From an uncultured Gammaproteobacteria bacterium (GTDB taxonomy: Bacteria > Patescibacteriota > Microgenomatia > Daviesbacterales > UBA10151), in NCBI GenBank assembly GCA_964405655.1, contig CAYOOO010000002.1, positions 2,022-66,021 of the forward strand: a stretch of 64,000 nucleotides of DNA, given 5' to 3'. Numbering within the stretch: position 1 is the first letter of the stretch; each line of letters opens with the position of its first letter. Shown here piece by piece: positions 1,784 through 51,617 of the stretch. The notes under the pieces were generated by a model. The model saw nothing but the letters and a program-made list of their open reading frames with translations, did not search any database and was not told the origin of the DNA. The translations under genes were made by a program, and so were the position numbers.

Positions 1784-4198
1784 ATGAAAAAATATCTACC
1801 AAAGGAGATAGAAAGTAAATGGCAAAGAAAATGGGCAAAGGATAAACTTTATTTTACTGACTTGTCAAACTGGAAAAATAAATACTACGTTTTAGTAGAA
1901 CTTCCTTATACCTCAGGTGACTTGCATATAGGTCATTGGTTTACCTTCAGCAAAGGTGATATTTTAGCCAGATTTAAAAGAATGCAAGGATTTAATGTTG
2001 TTTTTCCCAACGGTTATGACACCTTTGGCCTTCCAGCGGAGAATGCAGCTATAAAAAACAAGATGCATCCTAAGGACTGGACGTATGCAAATATCAAAAA
2101 GATGAGAATACAATTTGAGACTATGGGAACAGTTATTGACTGGACTAAAACTGCTATAACATGCGACCCTGACTACTATAAGTGGAACCAATGGGTTTTT
2201 CTAAAGATGTTTGAAAAAGGGATTGCCTATAAAGGTAAAAATATCTCAAACTGGTGCCCTTCATGTCAAACTGTATTAGCAGATGAAAACGTTGAAAATG
2301 GAAAATGTTGGAGGTGCGGGACTGAGGTTGACAAAAAAGAAATAGAACAATGGTTCTTTAAAATAACCCAGTATGCAGACGAGTTAATCTGGAAAGATCA
2401 AGACGATTACGATTGGCCAAAGTCATTAAAAGATGCTCAAAACCAGTGGATAGGTAGAAGCGAAGGTGCAGAGATAGAGTTCAGAGTAGAAAATTCAGAA
2501 TCCAGGATTAAAGTGTTTACTGTCTTTCCGGAAACAATTTATGGAGTTACCTATATGGTTTTAGCTCCAGAACATCCCCTGGTTAATGAGCTTACAACTA
2601 AGCAGCAGAAAGATTTAGTATCAAAATATAAAGAAATAGCTCAAAAGAAGACAGAACAAGAGAGAAAAGAAGGACAGAAAGACAAAACAGGTGTCTTTAC
2701 AGGTTCTCACTGTATAAACCCTGTTAATAATAATAAAATTCCTATCTGGATAGCTGATTATGTGATTTCATCTTATGGTACTGGTGCAGTGATGGGTGTA
2801 CCGGCTTCAGACCATAGGGATTTTGCTTTTGCAAAAAAATATGGCTTGGAAATAATTCGAGTAATTGGAAAAGATAAAAGCGATGATGGTCCGGTTAGGA
2901 CTGAAGAAGAAGTTTTAGAAGAAGGAGTCTTGGTAAATTCAGGACAGTTTAGCCTTTTACAAAGTCCTGAACCAGCTAAGGAAAGAATCATTAAGTATTT
3001 AGAGAAAGAAGGCTATGGTAAAAGAACCATTCAATATCATCTCCACGATTGGTCTGTATCTCGTCAAAGGTATTGGGGCACTCCAATACCGATAATTTAC
3101 TGCGATAGCTGTGGAGTAGTATCTGTACCCTATGAGGATTTACCTGTAGTTTTACCAGATAAAGTTGATTATGCTCCAAAAGGTAAAGCTCCACTGGCTA
3201 CAGCTGAAGAATGGGTCAGAGTCAAATGTCCTAGATGTGGCAAAGAAGCTAAAAGAGAAGTTGAAACAATGGATGGATTTGTAGATAACTCCTGGTATTT
3301 TTTTAGATATCTAGATCCCAATAATAAAAAAGAGATCTTTGATAAAAAAATTATTTCAAATTGGATGCCAATTCAGATTTATATAGGAGGAGGGGAGCAT
3401 ACTTATGGTCATGCTCTTTATTCAAGGTTTTTTAATAAGTTTTTTAAAGATATTGGGCTGGTTAGCTTTGATGAATATACCATAAAAAGGATCCATCATG
3501 GTGTTATTTTGGGACCTGACAGCCATAGAATGAGTAAATCAAGAGGAAATGTTGTCAATCCAGATGACCAAGCCTCAGACTATGGTTCAGATGCTGTTAG
3601 AATCTACCTTTCTTTTCTAGGTCCTTTCGATATTGTCACACCTTGGAACCCAAGTGGTATCAATGGGATTTATCATTTTATCCAGCGGGTTTGTGCTCTT
3701 TTTGATAAGGTTTCAGATATAGAGCCTAGTAATAAAGACCTAACATTTATGCATAAAACAATCAAAAGAGTAACTAAAGATTTAGAAGAACTAGCCAACA
3801 ATACTGCTATAGCAGCCTTAATGGAGTGGTTAAACTATTTGAGCAGAAAAGACAAGATCTCAAAAGAGGAATATAAAAATTATTTGAAATTACTTGCTCC
3901 CTTTGCTCCCCATATTACTGAGGAACTATGGGAAATGTTAGGAGAAAAATATTCCATTCATCAGACTGCTTGGCCAGAGGTAGATGAAAACTATCTTAAA
4001 GAAGTAACCTTTGTTATACCTGTTCAAGTCAATGGAAAGGTTAGAGATACCTTAAATATATCAGCCGAAGAAGCTTGGGATGAAGGAAAAGTAGAGAAAG
4101 CGGCTCTGGAACTTTCTAAAGTCAAGAAATTTGTTGATGGGAAAAAGGTGATCAAAAGAGTTTATATACCAGGTAAAATTTTAAATCTAGTAGTCTAA
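1784..4198 (+). CDS. leuS: leucyl-tRNA synthetase
   Basis: 804 aa. HIGH motif (DLHIGHWF) and KMSKS motif (RMSKSRGN). N-terminus and editing-domain spacing typical of LeuRS. Confidence 0.93.
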   Translation: MKKYLPKEIESKWQRKWAKDKLYFTDLSNWKNKYYVLVELPYTSGDLHIGHWFTFSKGDILARFKRMQGFNVVFPNGYDTFGLPAENAAIKNKMHPKDWTYANIKKMRIQFETMGTVIDWTKTAITCDPDYYKWNQWVFLKMFEKGIAYKGKNISNWCPSCQTVLADENVENGKCWRCGTEVDKKEIEQWFFKITQYADELIWKDQDDYDWPKSLKDAQNQWIGRSEGAEIEFRVENSESRIKVFTVFPETIYGVTYMVLAPEHPLVNELTTKQQKDLVSKYKEIAQKKTEQERKEGQKDKTGVFTGSHCINPVNNNKIPIWIADYVISSYGTGAVMGVPASDHRDFAFAKKYGLEIIRVIGKDKSDDGPVRTEEEVLEEGVLVNSGQFSLLQSPEPAKERIIKYLEKEGYGKRTIQYHLHDWSVSRQRYWGTPIPIIYCDSCGVVSVPYEDLPVVLPDKVDYAPKGKAPLATAEEWVRVKCPRCGKEAKREVETMDGFVDNSWYFFRYLDPNNKKEIFDKKIISNWMPIQIYIGGGEHTYGHALYSRFFNKFFKDIGLVSFDEYTIKRIHHGVILGPDSHRMSKSRGNVVNPDDQASDYGSDAVRIYLSFLGPFDIVTPWNPSGINGIYHFIQRVCALFDKVSDIEPSNKDLTFMHKTIKRVTKDLEELANNTAIAALMEWLNYLSRKDKISKEEYKNYLKLLAPFAPHITEELWEMLGEKYSIHQTAWPEVDENYLKEVTFVIPVQVNGKVRDTLNISAEEAWDEGKVEKAALELSKVKKFVDGKKVIKRVYIPGKILNLVV

Positions 4199-41177: not shown

Positions 41178-41252
41178 GCCGATGTGGCTCAGTGGTAGAG
41201 CACGTTCTTGGTAAGAACGGGGTCACGGGTTCAATTCCCGTCATCGGCTCCA
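41178..41252 (+). tRNA. tRNA-Thr (anticodon GGT), CCA encoded
   Basis: Acceptor GCCGATG/CATCGGC, anticodon loop TTGGTAA, T arm ACGGG-TTCAATT-CCCGT, 3' CCA. A TGgTACAAT extended -10 lies ~10 nt upstream. Confidence 0.85.
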
Positions 41253-41301
41253 ACTAAAACTTCTTATCTGAAAGACATTAAGAAAAATAAGATTAAATTT
41301 A

Positions 41302-42555
41302 ATGCCCGCTAAATTAAATATAGGATATCTCTCGTTTAGAATTGCTGGTACTGATGGGGTTTCTTTAGAAGCGCAGAGGTGGCGAACAATCCTGCAAAGA
41401 ATGGGCCACAAAGTGACCTTTATTGCAGGAGAGTTAGATCAATCAGGGTTGCTTATCCCGGAGCTTCACTTTACTCACCCTAAAGTCTACAAAATCCATG
41501 AGATGGTAATCTCAAATAATGTTAGTTACTTAAAGGTAGAAAAAGAGATCTTTTCACTGGCTGGTCAAATTGAGGGGCTTTTAAGGGAGTCCTTTAGGCG
41601 CTTTAAGTTTGACAGTTTAGTAGTCTCCAATATCTTTTCGTTACCTATCCATTTTCCTTTGGCAGTGGCTTTAGACAGAGTTATTGATGAGTTTAAAATT
41701 CCAACCATCTCCAGAAATCATGACTTTTGGTGGGAAAGGGAAAGATATTTGAAGTCTCATTGCTTTGAGTTTTTTATCAGATTTTTTCCTCCCAGAAGCC
41801 CATATATAAAACATGTCGCAATTAACTCTATTGCCCAGAGAGAACTTAAAAAAAGAACAGGAATAGGATCAACAGTTATACCAGATTGTTTTGATTTTAA
41901 AAGTAAATTAAACAAACTAGATTCTTTCTCAAAGCATTTTAAAAAGGACTTCAATATTAAAAGCAGTGATTTGATCTTCCTTCAGGCAACCAGAATAGTA
42001 GAGAGGAAAAATATCGAAGCCTCAATCGAGCTTATCAAAAGATTAAAAAATACTGGAATTGTTTTGGTTTTGGCAGGTTATGACGGGGATGAGTCAGGTG
42101 ATTATTTAAAAATGATTAAGAACCTTGCCAAGAAAGCTCAAATAGCAACGAAATTTATTGGATCAAGGATTAAATCAGAAAGGGGAATGAGTGAGGATGG
42201 AGCCCGCTTTTATACACTTTGGGATGCATTTATAAATTGTGATTTTGTCACCTACCCTTCAATCTTTGAAGGGTTTGGCAACCAGTTCATAGAAGCAGTT
42301 TATTTTAAAAAACCAATTCTGATAAATCGCTATAGTGTCTTTAAACAAGACTTGGAACCGTTGGGGTTTGATGTGGTTAAAATCAATAATGGACAAATAA
42401 CTGATCAGTCTGTAGAGGAGGTGAGAAAGTTATTACACAATCCCCAAAGGATAGAGGAGATGGTTAATAAGAATTTTAAAATTGGCAGCAAGTATTTCTC
42501 CTATAAAAGTATTACTAAAAAAATCGAGGATTTACAGAATAAGCTTTCAATATAA
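41302..42555 (+). CDS. GT4-like glycosyltransferase (GT-B fold)
   Basis: C-terminal FEGFGNQFIEAV motif of the GT4 E-x7-E type. Confidence 0.6.
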   Translation: MPAKLNIGYLSFRIAGTDGVSLEAQRWRTILQRMGHKVTFIAGELDQSGLLIPELHFTHPKVYKIHEMVISNNVSYLKVEKEIFSLAGQIEGLLRESFRRFKFDSLVVSNIFSLPIHFPLAVALDRVIDEFKIPTISRNHDFWWERERYLKSHCFEFFIRFFPPRSPYIKHVAINSIAQRELKKRTGIGSTVIPDCFDFKSKLNKLDSFSKHFKKDFNIKSSDLIFLQATRIVERKNIEASIELIKRLKNTGIVLVLAGYDGDESGDYLKMIKNLAKKAQIATKFIGSRIKSERGMSEDGARFYTLWDAFINCDFVTYPSIFEGFGNQFIEAVYFKKPILINRYSVFKQDLEPLGFDVVKINNGQITDQSVEEVRKLLHNPQRIEEMVNKNFKIGSKYFSYKSITKKIEDLQNKLSI

Positions 42556-42561
42556 TAAATA

Positions 42562-43173
42562 TTGACGCAATTTTTTAAAAGGTTTACAAATATTCCTGCA
42601 CCTATGCAAAATTTTCAGGTTGAAAAAGGTTTGGAACTAGCGATTAAACTTGGTTACCCCAGAGATATTTTAGACAAGATTCCAGTTGAGGCAATAGCCT
42701 CATTTTCTGGCGTTGGTTTTTACTTTGATCTACTAGACTTAAAGAAAGGGGAAAAAGTTCTCAGTTTAGGCGCTAATCCAGCTTTGGATTTGGCTGTTGC
42801 AAAACTCACGGTAGGAGAAAAGGGTAAGGTAGCAGAAACTGATTTAAGCAGTGGTAGTTTCTCCTTTGGGGCTGATAACTTCGATGCTGTAATTTCTAAT
42901 GGAGTGATTCACCTAAGCACAAACAAAAGAGTCCTCTTTAAGGAAGTATTTAGGGTTTTGAAGCCTGGTGGCAGGTTAGCTATTTCAGACCTAGTTACAG
43001 AATCTGATTTGTCTATTGTTATTCCAGACTTTGGTCAAATCACCAAAGAAGATGATCTTACAATCGCCATCGAGGAAGCAGGTTCTAAAATAGTTACAGT
43101 TCGAGAGAACCTTCAGTATTCAGCCCCATCCCCAGGAGTCAAAAGTGTCTCTTTACTTGCAAGTAAAACCTAA
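42562..43173 (+). CDS. class I SAM-dependent methyltransferase
   Basis: VLSLGANPALD (motif I) and LKPGGRLAISD (post I/II). Confidence 0.65.
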   Translation: MTQFFKRFTNIPAPMQNFQVEKGLELAIKLGYPRDILDKIPVEAIASFSGVGFYFDLLDLKKGEKVLSLGANPALDLAVAKLTVGEKGKVAETDLSSGSFSFGADNFDAVISNGVIHLSTNKRVLFKEVFRVLKPGGRLAISDLVTESDLSIVIPDFGQITKEDDLTIAIEEAGSKIVTVRENLQYSAPSPGVKSVSLLASKT

Positions 43174-43200
43174 TTAAAATTAGCCACAATATTTTTCTCT

Positions 43201-45366
43201 ATGGCTATACCTGAGAATAATCAAGATTTGGCAGTCCGAAGAGCAATTGAAGAGATTGATTTAGATACTGGTTTTTTAAGACCAGGTCAAGTTGGAAGGA
43301 ATAATGATCTTTTGGGCTCTTTTAGAGATTTGCCAACTGTAGCAGAGCTTGCAAGGGATGTAAGAAGTGCCAGGTTAGCTGCAGCAAGATTAGTTAGGGT
43401 TCAACCAAAGAGCAGTGGTCAAAATCCTGACTCAGAATTTTCTCCGGCTGCTCCTGCAGCTTTTAAACCAATTGAAGATGCCACTAATGATGCATTAGAT
43501 GTTATCTCAGCAATCTATTTAAGGTTAAGTGATAGTAAGAGGAACAGATTTCAAGCCTTATGTTATCGTGAAAGAGATTTAAAGAACTTATCTAAGGCAG
43601 TTGCGGTCAGGATAAATAAAGACAGAGATATCCAGGATTCAGATAGCAGAAAAGAAGTTGACAGGCAGCGACTATTAATGGCTGGCACAATGTTTTTATT
43701 GATTGATACTATTGATCAACTGGCTGCCTTCAGTAAGGATCCTGCTGATTTAGAGGCTGTCAGGCAGGCAGCGACTACTGTCAAGATGGCTAATGCTAAC
43801 TGGCTATATGTTGCTCATCAAGGTTTAAGTCTAAGAGATTTTATTAATGAAAGCGTTGATTTTAGAGGAAGCCCTGCTAGGCAGCTGGGCTTTTTAGTTG
43901 ATCTTTTGACATTTTATGAAACGGGTTTAGAGACCCAGCTAATAGCGGAAAATCAGCATTATCCATTTACACTTTATCCTCCCTCAATAGAACTTAATGT
44001 AAATTTTGCCCATAATCTTGTTGGGGCAATGTTAAGATTTGCCTCTGATGAGCGGGGTTTCCCAACAGCTGGACTAAAAGGTTTAGAGCGAGAAGCAGGT
44101 GAGCGTGCCCGCAAATTAGTAGATAAGGTGATTAGATTCAGAAAAAGATTTGAAGCAGTGATATTTAATACCCGCCATCCTGATTATCCGAGCCTAAGGG
44201 CTAAGATGTTAGGCTACCTAAGTATGTCTGGAATGACTGCTTTTGCAGCACTTTTTACAGCTGGAGTATCTGAGGCTGGAACAGTTCTAGCTTTTTACAG
44301 AAGATCGAATACTCAGATTGAGGCGGGTTATGATCCAGAGTTTTACAGTAAGTTTGCAGAGAAGTTAGAGAGTTATGGTAGGGAGGTGGTTCCTGACTCA
44401 GAGGTCTTGACAGATGATAAGCTGGTTTTAATTTATCAAGATGACCCCTCTAGAGTGGAACCACCAAATGATATCTTATTACCTCAAATTGTCTTAGGAC
44501 TTAGGCGGGCCACCAGGGATAGGGAATTTATCATTACTGGGGAGGAGATAGACAGAATTACTCACCCAAACCTGGCAAGACCTACCAGGATTAGGTTTAA
44601 CCTAGATCCAACTAAATCAGAAGTCTTTGCTGTAGAGTTTATCTATCAAAGGGAAGGGAGTGGTGAAATTATCAAGCTTTACTGCAAATACGATATGAAT
44701 CAAGGAGTAATGAGATGGAATGTTCTAGGAGGAGTAGTAAGAGAACTTGGGGACTATAGAAGAAGATTTGCTTACTTTGCCACTGATGCTGTCATCTCTA
44801 TTGTTAATTACTTACAAGATAAATATGTTCCAGGCAAGCCTGAGACAGAGGTTGTTAGACAAGTAGAAACAGCTGCTCTATCTTTGGGAAAGAGACAAGT
44901 AGCTGCATTTAGATTGTCTGAAGACGCCAGGTCAAAAGAAAAAAAGCCAGGAGCAGCCAGATCTCAAGTCTTGACTCCTGTTCAACAGGTTTTAAATAAG
45001 GGTAGAAAAGCTGAATCTGAACAACCTGAAGGTCCAAGAAGGTTTCTGATAGATAGAAAAGGTTTCAAAAGAGATTTACAGGGTTATCCCCAACCAATTC
45101 AGGTGAGGATTAAGGAAACACTGAGAAGATATTTGGAAGAAGGGGTGGGAGAGGTTAGCTCTCTCAATACCAGAGACAACGGAAGAACGATTTTAAGTCT
45201 ACATATTAATGTCATAAATAGAAGGGGTTTGAGAGTAGCTTTGGAAGTTTTAACCAGACCGGGAGAGGTAGGTTTTAGATATATTTTGATGGCTCCTAGA
45301 GATGAGGTTTATAGAAGATTAGCAGCCTTGGGCCTGGCTATAAACTCATCCAAAATGTCCAGATAA
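43201..45366 (+). CDS. large hypothetical protein (721 aa) with a RelE/ParE-like C-terminus
   Basis: C-terminus ... RVALEVLTRPGEVGFRYILMAPRDEVYRRL resembles the RelE/ParE core (... R-I-Y ... V ... I-R-I-G-H-R-K-D-V-Y). Arg-rich. Confidence 0.5.
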   Translation: MAIPENNQDLAVRRAIEEIDLDTGFLRPGQVGRNNDLLGSFRDLPTVAELARDVRSARLAAARLVRVQPKSSGQNPDSEFSPAAPAAFKPIEDATNDALDVISAIYLRLSDSKRNRFQALCYRERDLKNLSKAVAVRINKDRDIQDSDSRKEVDRQRLLMAGTMFLLIDTIDQLAAFSKDPADLEAVRQAATTVKMANANWLYVAHQGLSLRDFINESVDFRGSPARQLGFLVDLLTFYETGLETQLIAENQHYPFTLYPPSIELNVNFAHNLVGAMLRFASDERGFPTAGLKGLEREAGERARKLVDKVIRFRKRFEAVIFNTRHPDYPSLRAKMLGYLSMSGMTAFAALFTAGVSEAGTVLAFYRRSNTQIEAGYDPEFYSKFAEKLESYGREVVPDSEVLTDDKLVLIYQDDPSRVEPPNDILLPQIVLGLRRATRDREFIITGEEIDRITHPNLARPTRIRFNLDPTKSEVFAVEFIYQREGSGEIIKLYCKYDMNQGVMRWNVLGGVVRELGDYRRRFAYFATDAVISIVNYLQDKYVPGKPETEVVRQVETAALSLGKRQVAAFRLSEDARSKEKKPGAARSQVLTPVQQVLNKGRKAESEQPEGPRRFLIDRKGFKRDLQGYPQPIQVRIKETLRRYLEEGVGEVSSLNTRDNGRTILSLHINVINRRGLRVALEVLTRPGEVGFRYILMAPRDEVYRRLAALGLAINSSKMSR

Positions 45367-45395
45367 TTTGTTTTGAGCCTCCTAACAGAAAATAC

Positions 45396-45420
45396 GCCCC
45401 TCCGGCTTTGCCGGAGGCCG
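45396..45420. terminator. GC-rich hairpin, probable terminator for the minus-strand tRNA-Thr and possibly the plus-strand gene
   Basis: cctccggc ttt gccggagg. The minus-strand RNA continues with a U-rich tract. Confidence 0.45.
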
Positions 45421-45430
45421 AACTGTTGTG

Positions 45431-45502
45431 AGCCGGGACGGGGATTTGAACCCCGGACCCACGCTTTACAAAAGCGTTGCTCTACCACTGAGCTATCCCG
45501 GC
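45431..45502 (-). tRNA. tRNA-Thr (anticodon TGT), no encoded CCA
   Basis: Reverse complement GCCGGGATAGCTCAGTGGTAGAGCAACGCTTTTGTAAAGCGTGGGTCCGGGGTTCAAATCCCCGTCCCGGCT folds as a cloverleaf. Anticodon loop TTTGTAA. Confidence 0.85.
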
Positions 45503-45857
45503 ACTTATCCCAGTAATTTTAAGTTAAAAAGCATAAAAAATCCACCTTTGGCAAGGTGGATAATTGGACAGATAATTTCTGCCTACTTGGTCGTTTTTTG
45601 AGGTATTTCCCCCTAAATTATAGGTGGGGATTCAGTTTAGCAAACCTCAGTTTAACCAAAACTTAAATAATCCCCATATTAGGTGAAATCTCAGTGGAGG
45701 AAAATTCCCCCTCAAATTGTCAAACGTACCCAGTAGGCAAAGGTCGCCTTTTGGCGACTGGCTTTTGGCCATCTACTTTGTCCTTTTACAGGACTAATAA
45801 ATTATAGCATCTTATAAGGCTTGCCTGTCAAGTTAGAAATAGGTAAGAACACAGTTT

Positions 45858-46505
45858 TTAGAATCCCAACAGGGACTTTAATATAGAAGTTCCATTTAAT
45901 AGAATAAATCCCAACAAAGAAGAATTACCAATTGGAATAAACCAAAGCAAAAGAAGCAAAATAAAACCATATTGCTCAAGTTTCTGATATTCCCTGGCTA
46001 AGTTATAGGGAAGTTGAGATAGTAAAATCTTTGATCCATCAAGGGGTGGGATTGGTATTAGGTTAAAGACTGCTAAAAGTAAGTTGATATTGATCATAAA
46101 ATCTAAAAGTTCTAAAACAATAAATGGTAAGGAAAGACCTCTGAGAAGATGAAAAAGGAGTGCTGCAATGATAGCCAGTCCCAAATTTGATAAGATTCCA
46201 GCAGCAGAAACCAGCAGCTCACCTTTTCTTAAACTGGAAAAGTTAAGAGGATTAACAGGAACAGGTTTTGCCCAACCAAACAAGATTGGCGAGCCAGATA
46301 TAAAAAGCAGTGCTGGTAAAAGAATGGTACCGACAGGATCTATGTGGGGAATAGGATTTAGTGTTAGTCTGCCAGCTCTTTGAGCAGTATGGTCGCCAAA
46401 TTTTAGGGCTGCCAGGCCATGCATAACTTCGTGAACAATCACTGAAAAGAGTAGGACAACAATCGATAAAGCTATTAGCGAGGGACCAAAGATCTCTAGG
46501 TTCAT
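45858..46505 (-). CDS. M50 (site-2 protease) family zinc metalloprotease
   Basis: HEVMH (HExxH) in a TM helix and the downstream PPLDGS (LDG) motif. Confidence 0.75.
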   Translation of the reverse strand: MNLEIFGPSLIALSIVVLLFSVIVHEVMHGLAALKFGDHTAQRAGRLTLNPIPHIDPVGTILLPALLFISGSPILFGWAKPVPVNPLNFSSLRKGELLVSAAGILSNLGLAIIAALLFHLLRGLSLPFIVLELLDFMININLLLAVFNLIPIPPLDGSKILLSQLPYNLAREYQKLEQYGFILLLLLWFIPIGNSSLLGFILLNGTSILKSLLGF

Positions 46506-46614
46506 TCTTCAGATTATATTTCAAAGTGGCAGTAGTTGACAATTGTCACATTAAATCATTGCTAATTATTTTGAGCTTGAATTAAGTTTTATTCCCTGTT
46601 AAAATCTACCAGTT

Positions 46615-46851
46615 ATGTTGATATGTTCTCGTTGTGGTAAAAAACCTAATAAGATTGCCTTTTCTAGACACCAGAAAGGAAGTTCAGGCGCTTCTGAATG
46701 GCCTTTGCGGGCTCAAATTACCAAACACATCCAAAGACCAAACCTACACATTTTTAAAGGTCAAAAATATTGCACCAAGTGTTTAAGGATTGTTAAAAAA
46801 GACTTTAATATTGCCATGAGCAAAGCTCCTGCTTCTTTACCTGTAACTTAA
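46615..46851 (+). CDS. rpmB: 50S ribosomal protein L28
   Basis: CSRCGKKP ... RPNLH ... CTKCLR pattern of bL28. 78 aa. Confidence 0.6.
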   Translation: MLICSRCGKKPNKIAFSRHQKGSSGASEWPLRAQITKHIQRPNLHIFKGQKYCTKCLRIVKKDFNIAMSKAPASLPVT

Positions 46852-46872
46852 ATACTCTAAGGTTTCAAATTA

Positions 46873-48810
46873 TTGCTGCTTGGTAGTCTAATTGCAAAGC
46901 AATTACATCGCATTGCCTCTTGTAACGCGTTGCATTATAATCATGGGCTTAAGATGAGCTCATTAGCAGAACGAGCCAGAAGTTTAGGTCGCTATATACA
47001 AAGTAGTCTGCCTTTTACTCGCTCCGAAGCTCGAACAATTAAAGTTATAGAGCCTCCAACTATTGTCATTGAGACTGAAGATGGTAGCAGAACTGGTAGA
47101 AGAAAGGCTTTAAAAGCTCTAAAGCAGCAACCAGTTGGAGTCCTCCACAGATCAATTATTGAAATCCATAACCAACTAGGAAGAAGTAAAAAAAGGGTTA
47201 ATAAACTAATAGGAGACAACTTAAGCTGGGGAGAGATAATCTATTCAGCAGACCCTGCTCTACTGGGATATTTGTCAGTTAGACGCAGGTTAGCAGAAAC
47301 AATGGATTACTTGCAGATGGCAAATTTAAGCATCCCTTTAGCCTCCCCAGAATATCTGAATGTTTTAGAGCGTGAGAATTTATTCGATTACAAAGTTGGA
47401 GGAGTGAGCTTTTTAGAGATTGAAAAGATGCCGATGCAGCCAGAGTTAAGTCTGGAGGATATCTCCAGAATTGACCGCCTGACTATGGATGGAAAGAAAC
47501 TCTTTTTCGGCAGGGAAGTTGGTTACCTGAGATTTGCCCTGCTTTATCTAGCGGCTTTTAACTATGCCCGGCCAGACTCAAAAGTAAGTCTGCCGGAAAA
47601 CTTACGTGAGCTGCGAAGACGGGCTGTTGGCTATTTTGATTATTATACTGACTTAATGACCCAGTTTAACTTATCAGATGAGGTGGATTTACATCTAATC
47701 TGGGATCTTATGGGAGGCAGATCTTTTCTTCCACATGCTTTAGCAACCTACATCCCAGCCCGAAGAGGCATTACTCCATCTTCTGCAGTTAAACTGTTTG
47801 AAACAAAGTTTCAATCGATGGAACCTATCTTTGGGTTTTCCAGTAGAATCTGGGCAAGGAGGATGACGAGAGCAATGATAGCTTCAACTAAACAGGCTTA
47901 TTCTCAAAACTGCTTACCTGAAGACTTAGAGAAGTTCCAGCACTATGATCCTGAAGCAGATAGTAGAGCTTCAGAGAGAGTTTTACAACACTTTGATCAA
48001 TATTCAGCTGATCCTGAGGTTTACGAGAATGCTTCGGCAGTTTTAAAAAGGTTTCAGCAGCAGTATCGTAAAAAATTAAGAAGAGAGATTTTAGGTTCAA
48101 AAAATGGCAGGGTAAGAATAGATATGGGACAAGCTGGAATAGCCAGTTCCTTAACAGCTGCCCGCCATTATCAAGATACTTTAATGTTTGTTTTGCATTT
48201 TGATCCGCAAACTCATCTGACCATTGAGCTTGATAGAGCAGGCAAGATCTATGGAATCCCTGCCAATCTTTTTAGAAATGATCCTAATATAGCTTTAGCT
48301 ATGACAGACAGGTTGTTAGATCCGGTTATGAAGTGGTTAGATTTACGCTATCCAACTACAACTCAAGCTGCTATTTCTGCTCCCTGGCGAATACCCCAAT
48401 TAGTTGAGCTGGTTACCAAAGATGAAGAAATAGCTACTACACCAAAAAGAAAAACTTTAAGGTTACCAAGACCAAGTGAAATTATGCATACTACTCCAAA
48501 AACCAGTGTGGCTGGTGAGTCTGAAAGAAGAAAATGTGTTGTCATACACTCTAGAAAGAAGGTTAAAGAAATGTTGCCAAAAAATACTCCTGAGGAAGCA
48601 GTAGATAGGATCATGGCAGCAATTAAGGACTATGAATTTGGCAGGGATGCATCTGCCAAGACTTTGCAGTTATCTGGTGGATTAGTCCAAATTAGAACAG
48701 GAGATTTTAGGGTAGAATTAGAGCATCAAAGAGGCAGGATTTTTAGATTAGTTGATGCTGGAGATAAGAAGGATATCAGGAGAAGAGTTCAGCCTAAGGT
48801 ATTAACTTAA
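46873..48810 (+). CDS. large hypothetical protein (645 aa) with a RelE/ParE-like C-terminus
   Basis: C-terminus LSGGLVQIRTGDFRVELEHQRGRIFRLVDAGDKKDI resembles the RelE/ParE core. Arg-rich. Confidence 0.5.
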   Translation: MLLGSLIAKQLHRIASCNALHYNHGLKMSSLAERARSLGRYIQSSLPFTRSEARTIKVIEPPTIVIETEDGSRTGRRKALKALKQQPVGVLHRSIIEIHNQLGRSKKRVNKLIGDNLSWGEIIYSADPALLGYLSVRRRLAETMDYLQMANLSIPLASPEYLNVLERENLFDYKVGGVSFLEIEKMPMQPELSLEDISRIDRLTMDGKKLFFGREVGYLRFALLYLAAFNYARPDSKVSLPENLRELRRRAVGYFDYYTDLMTQFNLSDEVDLHLIWDLMGGRSFLPHALATYIPARRGITPSSAVKLFETKFQSMEPIFGFSSRIWARRMTRAMIASTKQAYSQNCLPEDLEKFQHYDPEADSRASERVLQHFDQYSADPEVYENASAVLKRFQQQYRKKLRREILGSKNGRVRIDMGQAGIASSLTAARHYQDTLMFVLHFDPQTHLTIELDRAGKIYGIPANLFRNDPNIALAMTDRLLDPVMKWLDLRYPTTTQAAISAPWRIPQLVELVTKDEEIATTPKRKTLRLPRPSEIMHTTPKTSVAGESERRKCVVIHSRKKVKEMLPKNTPEEAVDRIMAAIKDYEFGRDASAKTLQLSGGLVQIRTGDFRVELEHQRGRIFRLVDAGDKKDIRRRVQPKVLT

Positions 48811-48820
48811 GTTTTTAATC

Positions 48821-49813
48821 ATGGCAGCAGAAATTGATTTACCAAATCCAGTTCTTTCGTCACATTTAGTACGCTCAAGGCAGTTAGGTTATCAGAGCTT
48901 GGCAGCCATGCCTGCAAGATTATCTCTACCTTTGTCTTTAGAAATCTTTGAGGATTTGAGCGACAGACGGAAAAAGGTGGGTCAACTCGAACGGGAAGTC
49001 ATAGTTCCAAATGAAGAGGTTTCAGAAAGAGTTGCCTTTTTAGGTCAATATGGACAATTACAACCTACCTTAAGGCAGGTACTTGATTTTTTAGTCAGAG
49101 AAACTATCCTTCTTCAACCTTTAACTCAACTTGGATTTGATAGCGTTGTTAAATACTTTTTTAATATTGATCAAGTAGCAGGCATACCAATTGCTTGGAA
49201 CCGTATGGATTTAAGATCAGATGGAGCATATAACCACGATGAGGGTATATTGATGAAATTCGGACCTCCCTTACCTGAGAGTTTACTGATTAGTCTGGCA
49301 AGGACAGGTTTAGTTGATAATAGCTCATTGATTCTGACTCATGAATTAGTTCATTCCAAGCAGGCAGCCAGAAAGAAGAAAAGAGGAGAGTGGTATAAAA
49401 AACATCGGGAGTTTATGGAAGTCCATGCTTATATCAGCGAAGGTAGAGCTCAATATTCTGATCGCGGCAGATTAAAAAAACACATTTTAACTGCAGTTGG
49501 GTATGACAAAAAGCTAGTCTATCCTGGGGCAGATCCTTTTAAGATAATGTTTGCTATTTGGGCAGTTGATAGATTGCTAGCTTTGGGTTTTACCCATAAT
49601 CAAATTTGCGATAGAGAAGCAAATCTTGGTAACTGGAATCAAAGAAGATCTGTTTATGGAAGATTCTCTAAAACAATAGCATCAAGCTCTAGGAGGTTTC
49701 AGTTATCCTCTACGAACTTAGATGGTTTAGTTGAAGGGAATGATTTGATTCTGCGTGAACATAGAAGCATAGTCAGGTTGATAGCTCAAGAAGAACTTAA
49801 AAAAGCTGCTTAA
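48821..49813 (+). CDS. hypothetical protein (330 aa) with an HExxH motif
   Basis: LILTHELVHS zincin-like motif. Otherwise unknown. Confidence 0.45.
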   Translation: MAAEIDLPNPVLSSHLVRSRQLGYQSLAAMPARLSLPLSLEIFEDLSDRRKKVGQLEREVIVPNEEVSERVAFLGQYGQLQPTLRQVLDFLVRETILLQPLTQLGFDSVVKYFFNIDQVAGIPIAWNRMDLRSDGAYNHDEGILMKFGPPLPESLLISLARTGLVDNSSLILTHELVHSKQAARKKKRGEWYKKHREFMEVHAYISEGRAQYSDRGRLKKHILTAVGYDKKLVYPGADPFKIMFAIWAVDRLLALGFTHNQICDREANLGNWNQRRSVYGRFSKTIASSSRRFQLSSTNLDGLVEGNDLILREHRSIVRLIAQEELKKAA

Positions 49814-51269: not shown

Positions 51270-51617
51270 ATGTCAGTTGTTGAAAACTTAAGTAATTTAG
51301 GAAAAGAGCTAGTTGATTGGTGTAGGGATGCAAGAGTTTACCACGAAGTCCTCAGAGATGGCCGGCAAGATTATGCACTGAACGTCTGGGCGATAAAGAC
51401 CTTAGACCCAACCTTAATACCTGTGGCAGATTTATTGGCAAGGGAACAAGTATTACTGGATAACCCGGATCTGACCGCTAAAATGGACAGCATCAGACGA
51501 CCAGTAGTACTATTGCCCAAAGCTATCAGATTAGTCTTGGCTTTGGCGGACTATACAGTTATTGATTGGACAAGATTTATTTTTTCTGACGATCAATACA
51601 GTCGGATAGAGTTCTAA
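51270..51617 (+). CDS. hypothetical protein (115 aa)
   Basis: ORF only. Confidence 0.4.
   Translation: MSVVENLSNLGKELVDWCRDARVYHEVLRDGRQDYALNVWAIKTLDPTLIPVADLLAREQVLLDNPDLTAKMDSIRRPVVLLPKAIRLVLALADYTVIDWTRFIFSDDQYSRIEF

Follow-up and report, generated by a model that had tools for sequence, protein, structure and literature searches.

The window examined here is a 64,000 nt stretch of contig CAYOOO010000002.1 (assembly GCA_964405655.1), and it contains the gene of a large arginine-rich protein, protein B, that ends in a domain of the RelE/ParE superfamily (BECR fold, RelE-like), an assignment supported by the profiles of the protein's family and by its predicted structure. Nearly all known RelE-type nucleases are small, mobile toxins restrained by a separate antitoxin. 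Here, in contrast, a RelE module is joined to a large conserved body and holds one chromosomal address in a deep, tiny-genome lineage of the Candidate Phyla Radiation (CPR). We lean towards, without holding firmly to, the view that protein B is a chromosomally fixed and probably cis-controlled RelE-type ribonuclease (RNase) on a novel body, with no antitoxin gene, and that a second large protein encoded nearby, protein A, is separate from it and probably carries the same end module. Multidomain RelE/ParE proteins are already known in general; what stands out is a RelE-type module that is conserved, belongs to the core genome, has no partner and sits on a novel body.

The original prediction, made from the DNA alone, described A and B as two large arginine-rich proteins of 721 and 645 amino acids (aa), and both open reading frames (ORFs) are indeed present, that of B (46873–48810, + strand) giving 645 aa when read from a TTG start. 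As a product length the latter figure holds less well, because the NCBI entry for protein B (hypothetical protein HYS93_00805, 618 aa) and its two closest orthologues all begin at an ATG at 46954, and the product is likely to be the 618 aa protein; residues are numbered below from this ATG. Exact matches to both proteins trace the window to a metagenome-assembled genome of Candidatus Daviesbacteria (CPR, Microgenomates). The strings that had been quoted as the protein ends are internal, with A running 14 aa beyond ...EVYRRL and B 11 aa beyond ...KKDI. Arginine accounts for 10.5 % of A, 9.9 % of B and 8.5 % of a further protein encoded just downstream of B (protein C), exceeding lysine in each, whereas most proteins of the window are lysine-rich with 1–8 % arginine. 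Both A (pI 9.3) and B (pI 9.7) are basic. AlphaFold2 (AF2), supplied with an alignment of 110 family sequences, gave a model of protein B with a mean predicted local distance difference test score (pLDDT) of 88 and a predicted template modelling score (pTM) of 0.85, from which, together with family conservation, the following layout was drawn.

46954..48810, + strand: protein B, member of a family of ~600 aa Microgenomates proteins; the ORF reaches upstream to the TTG at 46873
46954..47088, + strand: aa 1–45, low-confidence N-terminal tail (AF2 pLDDT 45–52) running into a conserved basic motif
47089..48096, + strand: aa 46–381, all-alpha body (AF2 model and conservation)
48109..48348, + strand: aa 386–465, four beta strands and two helices with the conserved HLTLE...YGxP (AF2 and conservation)
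48349..48537, + strand: aa 466–528, disordered basic linker (AF2 pLDDT 50–60) with a conserved PKRK motif
48538..48807, + strand: aa 529–618, RelE-fold (BECR, RelE-like) domain (AF2, Foldseek and family profiles)

The basic motif at the end of the tail is SRxGRR (R46, R49 and R50), and HLTLE...YGxP spans residues 421–436; both are among the strongest motifs of the family, and the all-alpha body holds its most conserved ones, namely GxSLxDIExM (149–159), YFDYY (227–231) and PARLGITPSSAxKL (268–281). No Pfam or PDB match was found for the N-terminal 470 aa, and the all-alpha body had no relative by Pfam, by PDB sequence or by Foldseek against the PDB; over the N-terminal region the whole-family profile reached only 4nad_B in the PDB, at an insignificant E value of 2.5. 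This N-terminal body of ~470 aa, for which the model is of high confidence, contributes a fold that has no relatives in Pfam or the PDB.

Single-sequence searches with A, B and C returned nothing significant from Pfam, NCBIfam, PADLOC, PHROGs or the PDB sequences, and the C-terminal 110–190 aa searched alone were likewise without a significant match; for protein B the only sub-threshold matches were to DUF5345 (E 0.26) and to the PADLOC model PDC-M41A (E 0.028), both insignificant. The evidence for the RelE fold comes from the family. When the 58 family C-terminal domains of about 95 aa each that form our alignment A3 were scanned singly, 22 matched PF05016 (ParE_toxin; best E 4.2e-6) and two matched ParE_like. 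Five of the seven PDB matches of the profile built from this alignment were RelE-family toxins (Methanocaldococcus jannaschii RelE3, 2khe, Rv2866, RelE 9g12 and Pyrococcus horikoshii aRelE; E 0.02–0.06), the top three PDB matches of the whole-family profile were all RelE toxins, and RelE toxins were the only consistent PDB matches of the family profiles. In the AF2 model the domain comprises E529–531, H534–540, H547–561, E569–571, E577–582, E585–593, E596–604 and H605–617 (E, strand; H, helix), with pLDDT mostly ~93–97 but lower at the start (~85) and over the last residues (~70). This order of elements over aa 529–617 (pre-beta, pre-alpha, alpha, beta1–4 and a C-terminal helix) is the RelE-like topology as defined in a 2026 preprint on BECR classification (10.64898/2026.08.28.747851). 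The top Foldseek matches in the PDB were Streptococcus pneumoniae HigB (6af4_C and 6af3_E), M. jannaschii RelE (3bpq_B), HigB2 and a ParE-like toxin, with probabilities up to 0.97, and the confident matches in BFVD were phage proteins of ~100 aa only. The RelE/ParE core that had been proposed for both large proteins is borne out for protein B by these family PF05016 matches, the AF2 topology and the Foldseek matches to HigB and RelE, so that RelE-fold similarity was found for B in profile and structure searches alike; for protein A the case is weak, as discussed below.

In the column statistics of the 58 domains R62 is invariant, position 57 carries R or K in all but one (57 of 58) and G59 occurs in 55, while position 81 is R in 52 domains and K in the remaining six, and position 85 is Y in 38 and F in seven. 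The family hidden Markov model (HMM) aligned to Escherichia coli RelE with 11.9 bits, placing R62 on RelE R61, R81 on R81 and Y85 on Y87; in the E. coli sequence used, the K52, K54, R61, R81 and Y87 indices check. In protein B the R61 equivalent is R586. The domain also has an FExG motif that is specific to the family.

Protein B is a member of a real, diverse family that is conserved over its full length, as judged from sequence comparison. A profile of protein B and two relatives, searched against 1.84 billion cluster representatives (50 % identity), found 140 family representatives at E<=0.001, of which 99 reach E<=1e-30; almost all have lengths of 560–640 aa and match from about residue 45 to the C terminus, and it is this number, similarity of length and end-to-end match on which the family rests. 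A word-indexed homologue search with protein B found only two relatives (68 % and 51 % identity), and the 110-sequence family profile in the same kind of search found the same three proteins again. Ten family representatives that were looked up in their clusters were metagenome-only. The family is vertically inherited in Microgenomates (CPR; Daviesbacteria and relatives). Its proteins combine an all-alpha body of ~340 aa, itself novel, with a small beta/alpha domain, from which a basic, disordered linker leads to the RelE-type BECR domain at the C terminus. We found no description in the literature of this family, of its N-terminal body or of its synteny. A second C-terminal flavour of ~125 aa occurs in 11 of the 110 full-length members, and since it shows one weak ParE_toxin match (E 0.29) and a RelE/ParE-like pattern it is probably RelE/ParE-like as well. 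The RelE-type domain of the family is modular: it was also seen as a stand-alone 81 aa gene, P0133 (L015, 323–568), with no co-oriented partner upstream, and as the C-terminal part of a 303 aa protein, P0137 (L016, 344–1255), with an unrelated N-terminus of ~200 aa.

The chromosomal position of the family was compared across loci from GTDB genomes, Logan and ENA assemblies and JGI metagenomes. The order M50 (−), L28-like (+), B (+), ..., fmt (−), def (−) was found in 11 loci (the window, L001, L003–L005, L008–L010 and L012–L014), and these include the locus of a member, P0080, that matches protein B only at E 1.7e-42. In the L006 lineage the family gene lies between thyA-folA-glyA and rpsB with RseP, and in the L011 lineage between tig and an aminoacyl-tRNA synthetase gene, RseP, frr, tsf and rpsB. 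What lies downstream of protein B varies: the gene of protein C is there in the window and in L001 alone, other loci have a PIN gene, a sigma-like gene or unrelated ORFs, some have nothing, and no conserved immunity gene was found there across the compared loci. No antitoxin domain (ribbon–helix–helix, helix–turn–helix, Phd/YefM and others) was detected in A, B or their neighbours, and no copy of the family was found on IMG/VR viral contigs. Because of this fixed synteny, the variable downstream genes and the lack of viral copies and antitoxin domains, protein B is best described as a vertically inherited core gene, and not as a toxin–antitoxin (TA) module, a defence island or a polymorphic toxin locus. 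The search for cognate antitoxin-like small genes that had been proposed for these proteins yielded no antitoxin, the small gene upstream of B being L28-like. A mobile, patchy distribution, as expected of type II TA systems, is not seen for protein B; protein A, by contrast, is genome-specific at a tRNA locus. A scan for promoters and terminators gave counts that were not above those of shuffled sequences.

Our current working hypothesis is that the C-terminal domain would work like RelE, the basic module entering the ribosomal A site and cutting mRNA by means of the conserved Arg/Arg/Tyr set, and that the N-terminal body would control or target this domain in cis. One possibility is that the body is a built-in antitoxin on which the RNase would stay docked until a signal or cleavage of the linker frees it; another is that the body is an adaptor that would restrict the RNase to particular ribosomes. 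Control in cis is suggested because the cell permanently carries the domain without a separate antidote and because the domain appears to be docked. We infer a fixed, docked position of the predicted RelE domain on the body since the 420 aa body makes up 68 % of the chain and could not by itself account for a pTM of 0.85. Should the domain be active, the family would show how a toxin can be tamed in cis and retained as a permanent component of the cell, and it would open a new route to the study of translation control in uncultured CPR bacteria.

It is interesting to speculate further that protein B represents a 'domesticated RelE', that is, a lineage-wide Microgenomates housekeeping factor, encoded beside an L28-like gene, whose novel body acts as sensor or adaptor for a permanently attached RelE-type A-site mRNA endonuclease and which serves in routine translation control or ribosome rescue. 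This extension is argued by analogy and we regard it as tentative, nearer to doubtful than to probable; were it true, a RelE-fold nuclease would here for the first time have been taken from conflict systems into core translation physiology. The ribosome-collision endonucleases SmrB, Cue2 and NONU-1 likewise combine a small mRNA-cutting domain with a targeting region and are encoded by housekeeping genes. Protein B resembles them in conceptual architecture only, as a functional analogy; their nuclease fold is unrelated (SMR there, BECR in protein B), and the analogy carries no link to stalled ribosomes for protein B.

Several observations weigh against the view of protein B as a cis-controlled RNase. 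The docked position, and with it the step to control in cis, has the pTM score as its sole basis; the RNase activity of the domain is a prediction from fold and motifs; and the sequence of protein B itself has no direct match in Pfam or the PDB. RelE K52 and K54 are not conserved in the family, and K605 and R609 stand at the R81 and Y87 positions in protein B, with the same replacements in its two closest relatives. Because of these replacements (Arg81 to Lys and Tyr87 to Arg) the RNase activity of protein B and its small clade may be altered or reduced. Nor, in a small CPR genome, does the proximity of translation genes count for much. The best Pfam match is named ParE, so that the name would allow a gyrase-poison activity, although this Pfam family mixes RelE-type mRNases with ParE (Gerdes, 2025, PMC11980606).

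The same replacements, the lack of conservation at K52 and K54 and the 'ParE_toxin' name would fit a different explanation, in which the RelE fold is a non-catalytic module that binds RNA or the ribosome, or a ParE-like gyrase binder, the protein is a regulatory or structural factor, and the real activity lies in the N-terminal body, where the most conserved polar motifs of the family are found, including the acidic residues D155, E157, D229, D336 and E425. We consider this explanation unlikely, as R62 is invariant, position 81 is R or K in 58/58 domains and position 85 is aromatic in 45/58, which places purifying selection exactly on the RelE catalytic positions, and ParE gyrase poisons are without these residues (PMC11980606, and established knowledge).

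Set beside the free ribosome-dependent mRNA endonucleases of the RelE/HigB type (PF05016 and relatives), the C-terminal 90 aa of protein B have the same topology and these toxins as their top structural match, and the likeness extends to the family profile matches, the R61/R81/Y87 equivalents in the family and the basic pI of the domain. The differences are that the domain of protein B is tethered to a 600 aa protein and is not a free 90 aa toxin, that it has no antitoxin gene, that the family has its FExG motif and is fixed in the core chromosome instead of being mobile, and that K and R stand at R81 and Y87 in the clade of protein B. Fused forms are also on record. Gerdes (2025, PMC11980606) described multidomain or fused BECR toxins as fused TA mono-genes, ToxM and PtuXYZ, listed 195 fused antitoxin–toxin RelE/ParE genes, and set aside many multidomain BECR proteins in which an antitoxin was not identifiable. 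Protein B, with a RelE/ParE-fold domain within a larger polypeptide, the domain predicted to be docked on the remaining chain and no separate antitoxin gene found, might on these grounds be a single-gene antitoxin–toxin fusion (type II TA) acting in stress response or phage defence. We rate this, too, as an unlikely account, since protein B has no ribbon–helix–helix, helix–turn–helix, Phd/YefM, MqsA or other antitoxin domain, no transmembrane domain and no PtuA-like ATPase partner; its partner region, at 520 aa, greatly exceeds any antitoxin in size and shows stronger conservation than the toxin part; no PADLOC defence model was matched apart from the insignificant PDC-M41A (E 0.028); and, unlike mobile TA loci, its gene stays at the same place in the core genome even where the family has diverged deeply (down to 20 % identity), the body being novel and the gene syntenic among housekeeping genes.

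The suggestion that the two proteins belong to a polymorphic-toxin-like system found less support still. By this account the N-terminal region of a polymorphic toxin or secreted effector delivers the RelE-like end as an exchangeable warhead against competitors or against the host of an episymbiont. CPR bacteria do live attached to hosts, the toxin-type domain of protein B is C-terminal and lies behind a flexible linker, a second C-terminal flavour exists in 11/110 full-length members, and the domain also occurs alone (P0133, 81 aa) and on another N-terminus of 200 aa (P0137). Protein B resembles polymorphic toxins, in which BECR warheads are common (Zhang et al., 2012, PMC3482391), in having a C-terminal BECR-fold domain after a long N-terminal region and in showing some C-terminal variation within its family. 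However, neither A nor B has a signal peptide, a transmembrane segment (maximum Kyte–Doolittle hydropathy, KD19, 1.1 for B and 1.5 for A) or a trafficking domain (RHS, LXG, PT-HINT, MuF or other, by Pfam); there is neither an immunity gene conserved downstream nor a cassette array, and no viral copy was found; and the gene is present as a single copy at a fixed syntenic site across divergent genomes, with only two C-terminal flavours, both probably RelE/ParE-like, in place of a diverse cassette repertoire. We consider this account improbable.

Least probable of all, with very little in its favour, is the idea that the small zinc-ribbon gene directly upstream is not L28 but an antitoxin-like partner forming a two-gene module with B, for although it is co-oriented and conserved in 11 loci and is not recognised as L28 by Pfam, NCBIfam or PGAP, its orthologue profile runs in register with Deinococcus L28 and shares KRVQxxNLH, its product is basic, unlike typical antitoxins, it is absent beside the B-family genes in L006 and L011, and a promoter-like site lies between it and B.

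Protein A had been presented alongside B, and its gene and those adjoining it are as follows.

43201..45366, + strand: protein A, 721 aa, NCBI hypothetical protein HYS93_00785 (ORF)
44800..45036, + strand: protein A aa 534–612, end of a beta/alpha-domain helix and basic linker, colinear with the linker of the B family (family HMM)
45037..45366, + strand: protein A aa 613–721, candidate RelE-like domain, pI 11 (family HMM)
41178..41252, + strand: tRNA-Thr(ggt), left border of the segment holding a GT4 glycosyltransferase gene, a methyltransferase gene and A, inverted (tRNA call)
45430..45502, − strand: tRNA-Thr(tgt), right border of the genome-specific segment (tRNA call)

No homologue of protein A was found among 5.8 billion proteins, in JGI metagenomes or in any related locus, and it is absent from the 140 profile matches of the protein B family. 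Direct comparison of A with B by BLASTP, or by hhalign with three sequences, gave nothing usable. The family HMM (110 members), however, aligns residues 534–708 of A colinearly to its positions 421–572, which cover the linker and the RelE domain, with 8.7 bits; of 1000 window-shuffles of protein A none reached this score (maximum 4.0 bits, mean −2.4, standard deviation 1.2). In this alignment the GLRV and PRDEVY of protein A and its Tyr fall on the RelE R61, R81 and Y87 positions. Against a shared end module stand the facts that the linker, RelE and beta pieces of A each give only p ~0.05–0.06 when taken alone, that an HMM of the C-terminal domain only misses protein A, and that hhalign gave E 0.013–0.017 with a probability of 3 %. 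No Pfam, PHROG or PDB match was found for aa 613–721, and an AF2 model of A made without an alignment was unusable (pLDDT 40). On balance a RelE-like domain at the end of protein A seems reasonably likely, and A is probably a highly diverged protein with the same linker and RelE-like end module as the B family.

The setting of protein A differs from that of B. In the relatives, tRNA-Thr(ggt) and tRNA-Thr(tgt) are adjacent, both on the minus strand, upstream of the M50 gene, with 6–26 nt between them in L003, L004 and L005 and ~670 nt in L009 and L010, whereas in the window they are 4.2 kb apart. The segment at 41178–45502 that separates them holds the GT4 glycosyltransferase, the methyltransferase and protein A, all three without counterparts in the relatives; a search for flanking repeats that might explain the inversion of the segment found none. 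Because the segment is absent from relatives and splits the tRNA-Thr pair, we regard protein A as genome-specific cargo at a tRNA locus and not as a partner of B, and the pairing of the two proteins that had been proposed is not upheld, A being without a counterpart in any related locus. In L003 (2038–3603) and L009 (3208–4749), large serine recombinase genes were seen a few kilobases upstream of the M50/L28-like/B block, by the tRNA-Trp and tRNA-Thr cluster, which suggests a hot spot of integration at the tRNA cluster of this lineage. A 730 aa orphan was noted in L009 (12838–15030, + strand) between an NYN-domain gene and def, absent from the sister contig L010. As a candidate relative of protein A it was rejected, having no similarity to A, and with the beta/alpha domain of the B family it has in common only the short motif DRxG...P..L...P.I...M.RL.

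The remaining features of the B locus are these.

45858..46505, − strand: small M50-family membrane metallopeptidase, divergently oriented beside the L28-like/B pair in every Daviesbacteria-type locus
46615..46851, + strand: 78 aa four-cysteine zinc-ribbon ORF, L28-like, conserved directly upstream of B-family genes (synteny, profile)
48821..49813, + strand: protein C, 330 aa, with an HELVH motif, arginine-rich, 11 nt after B

A tRNA-Thr and an M50 protease had been placed between A and B, and both are there, as tRNA-Thr(tgt) at 45430–45502 (−) and the M50 gene at 45858–46505 (−). The third gene named in that interval, rpmB, is present as the 78 aa ORF, and its identity as L28 is plausible without being established. 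As a single sequence this ORF had no match in Pfam, NCBIfam or the PDB, and NCBI/PGAP lists it as hypothetical; a profile of eight orthologues matched Deinococcus radiodurans L28 only, at E=1, in register (6–46 against 7–47) and with the KRVQxxNLH motif in common. Judged from these sequence features it is probably a divergent L28 of the long-loop type, overlooked by current models in this lineage. The HExxH protein that had been reported after B is the 330 aa protein C, which carries HELVH. An orthologue follows B only in L001 (3531–4523), the closest relative (68 % identity), no family or solved-structure match was found for protein C, and it is possibly a minimal metallopeptidase.

An ORF-free gap of ~350 nt lies between tRNA-Thr(tgt) and the M50 gene, and within it a candidate 6S (SsrS) RNA was noted at 45576–45742 (−). 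This candidate is a full-length but sub-threshold match to Rfam RF00013 (24.1 bits against a gathering score of 46.4, E 0.019); the corresponding slot in L003, at 4037–4195 (−), matches RF00013 with 42.8 bits (E 2.5e-5). Just downstream of the candidate, at 45561–45540 (−), there is a terminator-like hairpin. Further along the window, at 51270–51617 (+), lies the gene of a 115 aa hypothetical protein, HYS93_00825, without a family match; in L001 the same slot, after def, is occupied by the gene of a 368 aa protein with a faint dockerin match.

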